From a virus (Duplodnaviria > Heunggongvirae > Uroviricota > Caudoviricetes), in IMG/VR virus record IMGVR_UViG_2526164662_000021, positions 1 through 64,000 of that record: DNA of 64,000 nucleotides; one strand, written 5' to 3'. Under the pieces are notes generated by a model. It was not told the origin of the DNA. It did no database searches and worked only from the letters and a program-made list of their open reading frames with translations. Positions 2,577-64,000 of this stretch are shown one piece after another; position 1 is the stretch's first letter, and the number at the start of each line of letters is the position of its first letter. A program made the translations under genes and the position numbers.

Positions 2577-2764
2577 TAAATATATTATTTTTAATGATAA
2601 ATGATTGACAACTGACAAGTGACTTCAGTCAGAATCATCACACGCCCGGTACGGATGGATCCCTTTTCAAATATTCCATGGACGGCACAGTCTGAGTACC
2701 GGGCGCTACCTTCAGTTGTATTGCTAAGCCGCCGCTGGTGGCTTTTCTTTTTTGTAGGGGCGCT

Positions 2765-3406
2765 ATGGATAAGAAAATATGCGTTGTTTCAATGAGCGTC
2801 GGCAAACCGGCGTCAATGACTGCTGCATGGATCAACAATGAGCTGATAATGGCTGAGCGGACCAGCTACCCTGAACGCCGCCGCGATATGGAACTCCAGC
2901 TGCTGCGCGAATTGCGAGAAAAAGAGGAAAAGGGTTTTATCGTGCTGGTGGAAGAGGAAAACAGCTTTATTACCGGTCGAGTTGGCCAGCGTGTAAGGTT
3001 GCGTGATCCCTTCATGAACGGCAGACCGGTACTGATTGAAGCAATGCAGATTTACAAGGAATTGGAACGCCAGAAAGCGATCAAGTTACCGCGCAAGGAA
3101 TCCGGCAAATACATCCTTCACCAAAGCATCTTCGATTCCGAACACGATAAAAAAGGCGATGAATTTTTCAACATCAACTGGAGCGAAATAACGACAGAGC
3201 ATGTTCTGACGTTACTATGTTGCTTTGCGACGGAATACAACAACGTTGCCAGCGCCGACTACATCAGGGCAATGGCTGGAGAAGTTGAAGCCCGCCAGGA
3301 ACCATCGTTACTAAGTCCACTTATTAACATAATTCTGGGTACCCAGACACTGGAACAAAAAAAAGTGCCGAAAGGGGTATTAACAGGCAAGCATAATTAT
3401 TTCTAA
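2765..3406 (+). CDS. mat: Hypothetical protein, position of P1 mat (maturation control)
   Basis: Synteny after ref; start placed at first ATG (MDKKICVV), the longer ORF begins at a GTG; no motif recognised. Confidence 0.5.
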   Translation: MDKKICVVSMSVGKPASMTAAWINNELIMAERTSYPERRRDMELQLLRELREKEEKGFIVLVEEENSFITGRVGQRVRLRDPFMNGRPVLIEAMQIYKELERQKAIKLPRKESGKYILHQSIFDSEHDKKGDEFFNINWSEITTEHVLTLLCCFATEYNNVASADYIRAMAGEVEARQEPSLLSPLINIILGTQTLEQKKVPKGVLTGKHNYF

Positions 3407-3571
3407 TAATTTATAGTGGGGACTTTTGATGGTGTAAAACCCCATGAATTATTATTTTTTAGTTTTTTGATTCTATTTTTTTTGCATTACCCGTCATAAA
3501 AATGAGCTTGCTTACATAATAGAAAATTATTTTATCAACACTATTACAACAAACGATTATCACTGATAACA

Positions 3572-3597
3572 TGAGTCCTTTGAAAACAAAGGACTCA
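3572..3597 (+). promoter_or_regulatory. Perfect 11-bp stem hairpin covering the likely RBS of the GNAT gene
   Basis: TGAGTCCTTTG-aaaa-CAAAGGACTCA, ends 8 nt before the ATG at 3605. Confidence 0.5.
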
Positions 3598-3604
3598 CCA
3601 TACT

Positions 3605-4213
3605 ATGTCTAATACCTCGGCAAATGAAATTGTACCGCACTTACCGCTAATTTTCGAAAATGAAGCTAATGGGATTCTTCAGGATCTGGCCTATACTCCA
3701 TCGCTTATGGGGTTGATGATGTTCCCGACAGAAGAGGAGCTGAAAGCAGCGAGAAGCTACATAATTAACGTTTTTGAAGAGTGTTACCGAGCCGGTCATT
3801 TGCGCATTATGGGCTTTACTAATGAAGAAAACTTGTTCGGATACGCTTTAATCTTCGGACATCCATCGGGAAATTTTCCGTTGTACTGTCATAAAATATA
3901 TGTATATGAGCAATATCGTGGTAATGGACTTGGAAGTAATATACTGGCAGAAATACTTGCATTTCCAAATGAGGTCGCTTTGATTTGCCAGTCTGATTTG
4001 GTTCCTTTTTATGAATCAGCCGGAATGCACTTTAAAGGAAATTACACCACTCCATCAGTCGCCAATTTCAAAAAAACTCGCGGCATGTATGAGGGGCTTT
4101 GTTTGATGAGCACTGAAAAAAATGCAAACTCTAATGGTGTACCTATATTCATGCTGAACGATAACGATATTGATAACATCATACAGGCTATCGCATCATC
4201 GGCACCACGATAA
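3605..4213 (+). CDS. GNAT-family N-acetyltransferase (cargo gene in the slot where P1 has res/mod)
   Basis: 202 aa; GNAT motif A ...YVYEQYRGNGLGSNILAEIL...; AT-rich leader; no partner ORF. Confidence 0.75.
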   Translation: MSNTSANEIVPHLPLIFENEANGILQDLAYTPSLMGLMMFPTEEELKAARSYIINVFEECYRAGHLRIMGFTNEENLFGYALIFGHPSGNFPLYCHKIYVYEQYRGNGLGSNILAEILAFPNEVALICQSDLVPFYESAGMHFKGNYTTPSVANFKKTRGMYEGLCLMSTEKNANSNGVPIFMLNDNDIDNIIQAIASSAPR

Positions 4214-4295
4214 TATTAATAATTCATCTCGCCGCAGGAACTACAAACCAGTTGATTGTTTGTGAAACGCCCGGTGCAAACCGGGCCAACAAAAC

Positions 4296-14591: not shown

Positions 14592-14613
14592 AACCCCGGC
14601 AGCTGCCGGGGTT
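14592..14613. terminator. Bidirectional terminator between convergent pro and lyz
   Basis: Perfect palindrome AACCCCGGCAG/CTGCCGGGGTT flanked by A/T runs. Confidence 0.6.
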
Positions 14614-45111: not shown

Positions 45112-45188
45112 CAAAAGAAAAAACCTGCCAGCAAACTGGCAGGTTTCTGAGCAGATCGACCAACCCGATCTGGATCGAGTCAGAAAAA

Positions 45189-45274: not shown

Positions 45275-46075
45275 ATGCAACAAACATTCAATGCGGATAT
45301 GAATATATCAAACCTTCATCAAAATGTCGATCCTTCAACCACTCTGCCTGTTATTTGTGGTGTTGAAATTACGACCGACCGCGCTGGCCGTTACAACCTT
45401 AATGCTCTACACAGAGCGAGCGGACTCGGTGCCCATAAAGCGCCAGCTCAATGGCTAAGAACGCTGTCAGCCAAACAGCTCATCGAAGAGCTTGAAAAAG
45501 AAACTATGCAGAATTGCATAGTTTCGTTCGAAGGCCGTGGCGGCGGCACTTTTGCCCATGAATTGCTCGCTGTGGAGTACGCAGGCTGGATTTCTCCCGC
45601 GTTTCGGCTGAAGGTAAACCAGACATTTATCGACTATCGAGCCGGAAGATTACAACCTGCTATTCCGCAGAGTCTCCCTGAAGCTCTCCGTTTGGCTGCC
45701 GACCTGGCAGAGCAAAAGCAACGGCTGGAGCAAAAAATGCTTATGGATGCACCTAAAGTCGAATTCGCCGAACGCGTTGCTACCGCCAGCGGGGTTCTAA
45801 TCGGCAACTATGCCAAAGTGCTCGGCCTGGGCCAAAACTATCTCTTCACCTGGTTGCGTGATAACGGAATTCTGATCGCAACCGGTGAACGCAGGAACGT
45901 CCCCAAACAAGAATACATATCCCGTGGGTATTTCACCCTTAAAGAAACCGTGATCGATACAAGCAATGGAAGCAGGATTTCTTTCACGACTCGTATAACC
46001 GGCAAAGGTCAGCAGTGGCTTATGAAGCGATTGCTTGATGCTGGTGTGCTGGTGCCTGTCGCGGCGACGCGCTAA
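45275..46075 (+). CDS. kilA: KilA-like protein
   Basis: 266 aa; C-terminal domain shared with Ant; synteny before repL. Confidence 0.7.
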   Translation: MQQTFNADMNISNLHQNVDPSTTLPVICGVEITTDRAGRYNLNALHRASGLGAHKAPAQWLRTLSAKQLIEELEKETMQNCIVSFEGRGGGTFAHELLAVEYAGWISPAFRLKVNQTFIDYRAGRLQPAIPQSLPEALRLAADLAEQKQRLEQKMLMDAPKVEFAERVATASGVLIGNYAKVLGLGQNYLFTWLRDNGILIATGERRNVPKQEYISRGYFTLKETVIDTSNGSRISFTTRITGKGQQWLMKRLLDAGVLVPVAATR

Positions 46076-48268: not shown

Positions 48269-48298
48269 TGGCTTATCTCAGTCATAATGGCTGAAAAA

Positions 48299-48328
48299 AG
48301 GCTGCAACAGAGGTTGCAGCCTTTTTTA
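48299..48328. terminator. Bidirectional intrinsic terminator
   Basis: AGGCTGCAAC-agag-GTTGCAGCCT flanked by A6 and T6. Confidence 0.65.
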
Positions 48329-55004: not shown

Positions 55005-55139
55005 TTTACTCTTCCTTAAACACAAGGCACTTGTGTGAATCCCTTTTCGGAAGAGATTTTATTGAAAGTCACTTGTTGACTTTCTCGTGACAAGCAATTT
55101 TTTTATTTTTTTCGGGAGTAGGGGAGGAAGGTAAAATCC

Positions 55140-55226
55140 AAGGTGAAATCGTGGCGATTTCACCTTGAAATTTTAGAGGGATTTACTTTAAAAACAGTAG
55201 TTTAATAGTGAAATTTGAATGGCGAA
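55140..55226. other. parS: parS partition centromere
   Basis: Box A heptamers GTGAAAT/ATTTCAC (55143-55149, 55157-55163, 55208-55214) and box B hexamers TGGCGA (55152-55157, 55220-55225) just downstream of parB. Confidence 0.8.
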
Positions 55227-58457: not shown

Positions 58458-58714
58458 TTGACTATGCGCGAAAGTTAATGTGAATAGTTGACTATGCGCG
58501 ATGTGACTACAGTCAAAAGTTGACTGTAGTCGATTTAACTCCACCAAAAATCGACTATGTAAGATATTGTCGGGAGAAACGTTGACTATACGCGATGAAA
58601 TGACCCTAAAAGCCATCTCAATAGCGACTTGCAGAATATTGACGCCAGCAAAAATCCACCAGCGTCAACGAATGTCGCCTATAGTCAACTTCTCGCTATC
58701 GCATATAGTCAATA
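58458..58714. repeat. incA-like iteron array downstream of repA
   Basis: At least 8 copies of TTGACTATGCGCGA-like repeats in both orientations. Confidence 0.8.
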
Positions 58715-63399: not shown

Positions 63400-64000
63400 A
63401 AGAGCTGTGCTATGGATCTGTTTGCAGTGGAATTGAAGCCGCGAGTATTGCCTGGGAACCGTTGGGTATGCGTCCGGCGTGGTTTGCTGAAATCGAGCCT
63501 TTTCCATCTGCCGTTCTTGCGCACCGCTGGCCCCATGTCGCCAACCTTGGCGACATGACAAAACTTGCCAAAAAAGTCCTGGCTGGGGAAATCGAATCCC
63601 CTGATGTGCTCGTCGGGGGAACACCTTGTCAGGCATTCAGTATCGCTGGATTACGTGGTGGGCTTGATGATGAGCGTGGCGCGCTAACTTTAAAGTATGT
63701 GGAGCTTGCAAATGCAATTGACGACAAACGGGCTGAGTCATTTCTCAAACCGACAGTTATCGTCTGGGAAAATGTCCCAGGAGTCCTGTCATCGGCAGAT
63801 AACGCCTTCGGATGTTTCCTTGCCGGATTGGCTGGAGAAGATGCGCCATTTGAACCAGGTGATCGACCTGAATCAGGAAAAAGTAACGCGTTCTGGCGGT
63901 GGGATGGCAAAACCGGTTGCCATGCTCCAAAGTGGCCGCAGTGTGGTTGTATTTATGGACCGCAGCGAAAGGTGGCCTGGAGAATCCTTGATGCCCAATA
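63396..64000 (+). CDS. dmt: DNA methyltransferase, N-terminal part (C5-cytosine MTase motifs); truncated by window end
   Basis: Hand translation from GTG 63396: ...[12 protein letters not shown]... (PCQ motif) and ...ENVPG...; no stop before 64000. Confidence 0.7.

Follow-up and report, generated by a model that had tools for sequence, protein, structure and literature searches.

A palindrome over the predicted transcription start of a mobile acetyltransferase gene in a P1-like phage-plasmid

The gene for a GNAT N-acetyltransferase in a P1-like phage-plasmid is preceded by a perfect inverted repeat that holds its Shine-Dalgarno (SD) sequence, and a 13-codon upstream open reading frame (uORF) runs through this repeat and ends just past the GNAT start codon. 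In a preliminary description of the locus, this arrangement was taken to suggest conditional control of the GNAT gene or translational coupling. The question raised by the locus is which transcripts would carry the hairpin and whether the uORF has any part in the expression of the gene. The whole stretch of DNA that was analysed, 64,000 nucleotides of IMG/VR record IMGVR_UViG_2526164662_000021, is referred to as the window. The features of the region are collected in Table 1.

Table 1. Position of the features discussed in the text (window coordinates).
Feature	Position	Strand	Description
Late promoter LPmat	2617-2635	+	Lpa box AAGTGACTT at 2617-2625, -10 CAGAAT at 2630-2635; drives mat toward GNAT
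mat (maturation control)	2765-3406	+	Co-directional with GNAT; stop codon 198 nt before the GNAT ATG
Terminator-like structure after mat	3404-3460	+	Interrupted 20-bp stem, then U6AGU6; -13.6 kcal/mol
Weak -35-like TTACAA	3544-3549	+	17 nt upstream of the hexamer; not conserved in other lineages
Predicted extended -10, TG-a-TAACAT	3564-3572	+	TG at 3564-3565, hexamer at 3567-3572
uORF, 13 codons	3571-3612	+	Encodes MSPLKTKDSPYYV; judged not functional
Palindrome (hairpin), 26 bp	3572-3597	+	Perfect 11-bp stem, 100% complementary
Predicted start zone	3578-3583	+	Nominal +1 at 3579, in 5' arm and loop; from sigma-70 geometry
SD of GNAT, AAGGA	3589-3593	+	Within the 3' arm, at 11 nt from the ATG; pairs with the anti-SD at -5.3 kcal/mol
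GNAT N-acetyltransferase gene	3605-4213	+	202 aa; Pfam Acetyltransf_10 and Acetyltransf_1

The acetyltransferase cassette and its genomic setting

The window belongs to a P1-like phage-plasmid. It starts with Cre, followed by ref, mat and GNAT (+ strand) and then by lxc, ulx and darB on the - strand. Around mat, the sequence shares 96-97% identity with phages P1, P7, SJ46 and RCS47; for P1, this identity ends at about position 3351, within the 3' end of mat. The annotated P1 record has res and mod, a convergent pair of type III restriction-modification genes, between mat and lxc; in the window, the GNAT module (3352-4295) takes the place of these EcoPI genes. The module was found in 19 of 5,426 complete E. 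coli genomes and is plasmid-borne in every case. About 19 P1-like plasmids carry it at 97-100% identity, and none was found among deposited phage genomes.

Two further observations were made on this segment. The G-run at 2757-2760 is one base shorter than in P1 (GGGG instead of GGGGG), so that the annotated mat start of P1 (ATG 2655 in the window) is out of frame with the long mat reading frame. The gene probably starts here at ATG 2765 (213 aa), which matches the annotation of related plasmids. In the P1-like plasmid pHYEC7-mcr1 (NZ_KX518745.1; L004), the GNAT gene is broken by ISApl1 carrying mcr-1: homology stops at the equivalent of window position ~3890 and is followed by the ISApl1 transposase and mcr-1.1.

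The GNAT protein is identical to PDB 9S30 over residues 1-202 (E = 8.7e-137). Its next solved relatives, the arylalkylamine (AANAT) and diamine (SSAT-type) acetyltransferases, are reached only at E ~0.003. The protein falls in a PHROG family of unknown function, PADLOC gave no match for it, and no paper on 9S30, or on this GNAT in P1-like elements, was found in literature searches. The family is small (23 clusters), and its members share the position of the start codon in all orthologues. As a single-gene cassette, GNAT is also found in IncFII plasmids, chromosomes and other phage-like contigs, where its neighbours are ParE, DUF932, DUF4942 and phage lysozyme genes. A role as the toxin of a type II toxin-antitoxin pair (TacT/AtaT type) is not supported, as no partner ORF adjoins the gene and neither TacT nor AtaT is among the PDB matches at E up to 1. 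There is thus no particular reason to expect a toxin-like tight control.

The hairpin and the uORF

The palindrome consists of a 5' arm TGAGTCCTTTG (3572-3582), an AAAA loop (3583-3586) and a 3' arm CAAAGGACTCA (3587-3597); the preliminary description had given both its coordinates and its sequence exactly. The hairpin alone is predicted to fold with -15.5 kcal/mol. In a 101-nt context it is the dominant element, present in the MFE as well as in the centroid structure (z = -3.9), and none of 200 shuffles folds as well. The window has six distinct perfect stems that reach 11 bp or more with a loop of 3-8 nt, against a mean of 0.075 in dinucleotide shuffles, and the hairpin is therefore not a chance match. 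A search with Rfam covariance models, run up to E = 10, gave no match over 3540-3620. The hairpin is of an ordinary kind, and its function is putative.

Other hairpins of 11-19 bp, perfect or near-perfect and far above chance, were seen in the window at 14592-14613, 45121-45146, 45497-45528, 48294-48327, 55133-55173, 58505-58531 and 63534-63557. The one at 48294-48327 (AAAAAAGGCTGCAAC / GTTGCAGCCTTTTTT) resembles a bidirectional terminator.

By an anti-SD pairing scan, AAGGA is the only element complementary to the anti-SD within 20 nt before the GNAT ATG, which bears out the earlier statement that the stem holds the only SD-like element of the gene. A homologous (C/A)GAAGGA is retained in most orthologues, and the distance between SD and ATG is 11 nt in the window versus 7-8 nt in other lineages. 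With both arms present, opening the SD costs ~14 kcal/mol (13.8-14.6, quoted as 13.9) and opening the whole ribosome-binding site (RBS, -18 to +3) costs ~16 kcal/mol. If both arms are transcribed, the stem would therefore bury the SD. This part of the earlier proposal stands, in the sense that the hairpin probably sequesters the SD in read-through transcripts only; the coupling of GNAT to the uORF is not supported, as set out below.

A stable, GC-containing stem downstream of mat could also be an intrinsic terminator or attenuator that stops mat transcripts. This is hardly credible here, since both strands lack a U-tract (CCAUACUAUG comes directly after the stem), the stem was passed over by the terminator scan, and a better candidate lies at 3404-3460.

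The distribution of the hairpin was examined in orthologues taken with their flanks from plasmids, genomes, viral contigs and assemblies, at 97%, 85%, 74-76%, 67-71%, 62%, 56% and 45-55% protein identity. Only the shallow lineage of the window (lineage A, 97-100% identity) has the 11-bp stem and the ATG of the uORF. Every orthologue at 85% protein identity or below lacks the stem and has no complementary 5' arm, and RNAalifold applied to 12 leaders gave -0.7 kcal/mol, with no conserved structure and no SD-containing helix. Lineage A comprises two haplotypes, and the sole change near the stem, C3598T, is located just outside it. No changes are seen in the 26 nt of the palindrome versus ~1.3 expected, the spacer having ~5% variable sites; purifying selection on the stem cannot be inferred from this count because lineage A holds too little diversity.

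This narrow distribution is consistent with a neutral origin. The 3' arm is largely ancestral, as seen from CGAAGGACTCT in the orthologue L020 and CAAAGGACTCA in the window, and, compared with the ancestral CAGGCTTT(A/G), the 5' arm shows clustered changes that all raise complementarity. Template switching can make quasi-palindromes perfect, and clustered changes of this kind are its signature. The SD-bearing arm might have been copied in this way into the opposite arm, leaving a by-product with no selected role that would be harmless because the promoter would fire from inside the palindrome. Several separate changes would nevertheless be required (some in the 5' arm, a deletion in the loop and a G-to-A substitution in the 3' arm), the spacing of SD and ATG is also altered, and the orthologue L022 shows a comparable arrangement of independent origin. 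For the origin of the palindrome, this account is equally simple; that nothing else is involved appears possible but doubtful.

The uORF is present exactly where it had been described, with its TAA (3610-3612) 3-5 nt past the GNAT ATG and an overlap of ATGTCTAA. This stop codon corresponds to GNAT codons 2-3 read out of frame. The length of the uORF is unremarkable, since 60% of the + strand ATGs in the window are open for at least 13 codons. No SD was found for its start: the anti-SD pairing amounts to +0.3 kcal/mol, a value that 79% of random 20-mers match or better. In addition, two of the three bases of its ATG lie in the stem. All 11 other orthologue leaders lack an ATG at this position, where they read CAT-CAG, CAT-TGG, CAT-TGC or TAT-CGG.

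In a model built on the preliminary description, the main mRNA would start upstream of 3571, and translation of the uORF, or another trigger, would open the stem and couple ribosomes to the GNAT start. The locus has several properties that this model calls for, namely a strong stem containing the SD, a uORF stop only a few nucleotides past the GNAT ATG, and promoter-like sites upstream in lineage A (3426-3455, and 3555-3560, which would make the uORF nearly leaderless). Furthermore, constitutive SD-sequestering stems do occur in native mRNAs, as shown for IS200 tnpA (PMC4513863). The likeness to erm-type leaders and to stop-start coupled genes is that a short ORF runs through an SD-holding stem and its stop overlaps the downstream start; the uORF differs from them in having no initiation signals, in not being conserved and in lying partly upstream of the predicted transcription start. 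The model is considered unlikely. The uORF lacks an SD and has its AUG in the stem, both ATG and stem are missing from all other lineages, the best upstream promoter candidate lies inside the terminator-like hairpin, and a stem of -15.5 kcal/mol with no evident opener would just silence the gene. The proposed coupling is also at odds with the position of the ATG, which is upstream of the predicted transcription start. The uORF is most likely meaningless and would be a by-product of one C-to-G change beside the -10 hexamer.

The conserved motif and the predicted transcription start

All 13 orthologues of at least 56% identity have a motif of the form TG-N-TAA-Y-AT, the last base of which lies 27-34 nt upstream of the ATG. 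In a motif-anchored alignment it is the sole invariant block between -45 and +45, including in L022 and L025, the flanks of which are otherwise unalignable. The chance of finding the motif within a few bases of that position is estimated at ~3 in 10,000 per sequence. When sigma-70 candidates were ranked with a simple weight matrix, it came first or second in all orthologues but L023 (11 of 12), where it came third, and no other sigma-70 candidate is conserved in position.

The variable positions of the motif are N, the fourth hexamer base (-9) and the base after the hexamer; the TG, T(-12), A(-11) and T(-7) are invariant across the 13 orthologues. As these variable positions are the ones that the extended -10 model leaves free, the motif fits an extended -10 promoter. 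The upstream neighbours are divergent in L021, L024, L025 and L030, where the cassette must therefore carry its own promoter. The conserved motif is thus predicted to be the GNAT cassette's own sigma-70 extended -10 promoter. It resembles the TGnTATAAT class in the TG one base upstream of the hexamer, in a poor or absent -35 and in a fixed distance to the gene. It differs in its hexamer, which is TAACAT or TAATAT and matches only four of the six consensus positions.

Other interpretations of the motif were tried and rejected. The small palindrome CTGAT-aac-ATCAG is perfect only in lineage B, and substitutions break its symmetry, so that it is not a conserved RNA hairpin or operator. Compared by inspection with the consensus sequences of a C1 operator, a LexA box and sigma-28 and sigma-54 promoters, the motif fits none of them. 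In the window, the TG of the predicted promoter is overlapped by a second palindrome specific to the lineage, TTATCA-c-TGATAA (3557-3569). On the - strand, a promoter-like TTCAAA-17-GATAAT (3584 to 3556) would read back toward mat, its -35 being inside the big palindrome.

Transcription from sigma-70 promoters starts about 7 nt after the hexamer. The hexamer shares its last two bases with the uORF ATG (A and T), and the last one is at the same time the first base of the 5' arm. Because the hexamer ends at 3572, the uORF ATG would lie upstream of the start, and the start itself would be inside the 5' arm. The preliminary description had named an mRNA beginning downstream of the hairpin as the finding that would count against it; the start predicted here, within the 5' arm, would be of this kind.

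A UCAG after the -10 hexamer is complementary to the CUGA of GNAT codons 2-3 in 8-12 of 12 orthologues (alignment columns 18-21 and 57-60; window 3572-3575 and 3609-3612). This pairing shows few compensatory changes and is broken in the window, and its UCAG would lie upstream of the predicted start.

The effect of the start position was calculated by folding. For transcripts starting in 3578-3583, opening the SD costs 2.2-3.6 kcal/mol. A start at 3576-3577 leaves a stem of 6-7 bp, and 7 kcal/mol is then needed to open the SD. The predicted native transcripts of all 13 orthologues have an RBS opening cost of 2.4-6.1 kcal/mol, with 3.2 for the window. In a window transcript starting 100 nt upstream, this cost is 16.0 kcal/mol, a value reached by none of 200 shuffles of the upstream part.

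Relative to the predicted promoter, the palindrome extends from -7 to +19, and it might act as DNA, as an operator bound by a dimeric repressor. Its perfect symmetry (11-4-11) and its location over the start site are typical of repressor operators. However, no recurrence of the half-site beyond chance is seen in the window (23 matches at up to 2 mismatches versus 17 expected); it is absent from 31.5 kb of another P1-like plasmid and is found in 2.9 million viral contigs only at this same locus. The 31.5-kb region, from pB27_2, is not collinear with the window (AMR island) and served as extra backbone only. Moreover, the palindrome does not resemble the Lpa box AAGTNACTT, no regulator gene adjoins it, and it is missing from the orthologous cassettes. 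An operator is thus very unlikely.

Transcripts from upstream and comparison with known systems

An outside source of co-directional transcription does exist. LPmat is identical to the annotated LPmat of the P1 record AF234172, and the surrounding region with Pmat and Omat is identical to P1 over the stretch compared. Transcription of mat from LPmat and the C1-controlled Pmat thus runs in the direction of GNAT, and the gene ends 198 nt upstream. The spacer between mat and GNAT contains no Lpa box (AAGTNACTT, from the annotated LPmat); the box was taken from the annotated P1 record, as a de novo search for recurring 9-bp palindromes did not recover it.

The terminator-like structure after mat is made of UAAUAAUUU/AAUUAUUA and GGGG/CCCC stems. 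Its z is only -1.2, it was not called by the terminator scan, and it occurs in lineage A only. This structure encloses the best-scoring sigma-70-like site of the spacer, TTGATG-18-TATTAT (3426-3455), which is lineage-specific, and a weak GATTAT at 3555-3560 would start transcription at ~3567. Transcripts containing the complete hairpin are probably a minority, and the terminator-like structure may leave little read-through to insulate against.

The explanation that we favour, tentatively and with slightly less than even confidence, places the start of the cassette's own promoter within the palindrome, which would act physically as a read-through insulator for the GNAT cassette. With the extended -10 promoter (TGaTAACAT) that the cassette would bring, transcription would begin at ~3579, past the uORF ATG and within the 5' arm. 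The native mRNA would have a leader of ~26 nt and lack all but 0-5 nt of the 5' arm, so that no stem would form and translation would proceed from a free AAGGA. Both arms would be present only in transcripts initiated upstream, by read-through from mat (LPmat, Pmat) or from a promoter in the upstream spacer. In these, the 11-bp stem would bury the SD and should block translation. The palindrome would thus not be a switch on the main mRNA. We infer the transcription start, as well as insulation being selected rather than incidental; selection for insulation is uncertain.

Segments complementary to the SD region were also found at other loci. In L022, a perfect 7-nt anti-SD, CUCCCUG facing CAGGGAG, abuts the same promoter motif; opening the RBS costs 16.5 kcal/mol there, a value reached by 3 of 200 shuffles. 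The context is unrelated to that of the window, with a co-directional, unrelated gene 77 nt upstream. Lineage B has a perfect 7-nt anti-SD, CUCCUUC facing GAAGGAG, 147 nt behind mat, and here 17-41 of 200 shuffles reach the value. Upstream of the predicted start, the 7-nt anti-SD segments are positioned at 2440-2500 in L022, at ~2470-2540 in L001 and at ~2430-2500 in L002. Such segments are seen only where a co-directional gene lies upstream within less than 200 nt, and at no locus with divergent or distant upstream genes.

The anti-SD segments may have evolved independently where the cassette landed close behind a co-directional gene, with 11 bp in the window and shorter pairings in lineage B and L022, but we consider this improbable. 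The shuffle test of anti-SD selection is significant for the window, nominal for L022 and non-significant for lineage B, so that recurrent selection is at most suggestive. If this independent evolution is true, translational insulation would be selected and repeatedly reinvented in a single-gene mobile cassette, beyond insertion sequences. As a separate observation, the RBS of L005, L019, L021, L025 and L030 is more open in 140-nt transcripts than with nearly all upstream shuffles (189-200 of 200 cost at least as much), which suggests that the upstream sequence at these loci avoids pairing with the RBS.

The locus calls for caution in reading such features from sequence only, as a hairpin over an RBS together with a uORF may look like a textbook case and still span a promoter rather than an mRNA. 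Of modest practical use is the definition of a likely promoter and leader for a widely mobile GNAT with a solved structure (9S30). If the prediction holds, the cassette would be a non-transposase case of a classic mobile-element device, by which foreign transcripts are made untranslatable, in a P1-like phage-plasmid with strong late mat transcription running toward it.

This device is reportedly found in IS10 and IS50, where fold-back of the transposase mRNA inhibits its translation. The GNAT cassette shares with these elements an inverted repeat with the 3' arm over the RBS and a gene in a mobile unit that lands in many transcriptional contexts. In those elements the promoter fires within or after the 5' arm; for the cassette this is predicted, and its native transcripts would then be translatable, while external ones would fold and stay untranslated. 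It differs from them in carrying an acetyltransferase instead of a transposase, in a start that is predicted, and in a stem restricted to a single shallow lineage (a second, independent case is possible).

The left end of IS200 combines, for tnpA, a terminator against impinging transcription with an SD-sequestering stem-loop (PMC4513863). Two layers are seen at the GNAT cassette as well, the terminator-like hairpin (3404-3460) and the stem that would bury the SD. In IS200, the SD stem belongs to the native 5' UTR and represses the native mRNA (PMC4513863), whereas the native start of the GNAT cassette is predicted to exclude the 5' arm.
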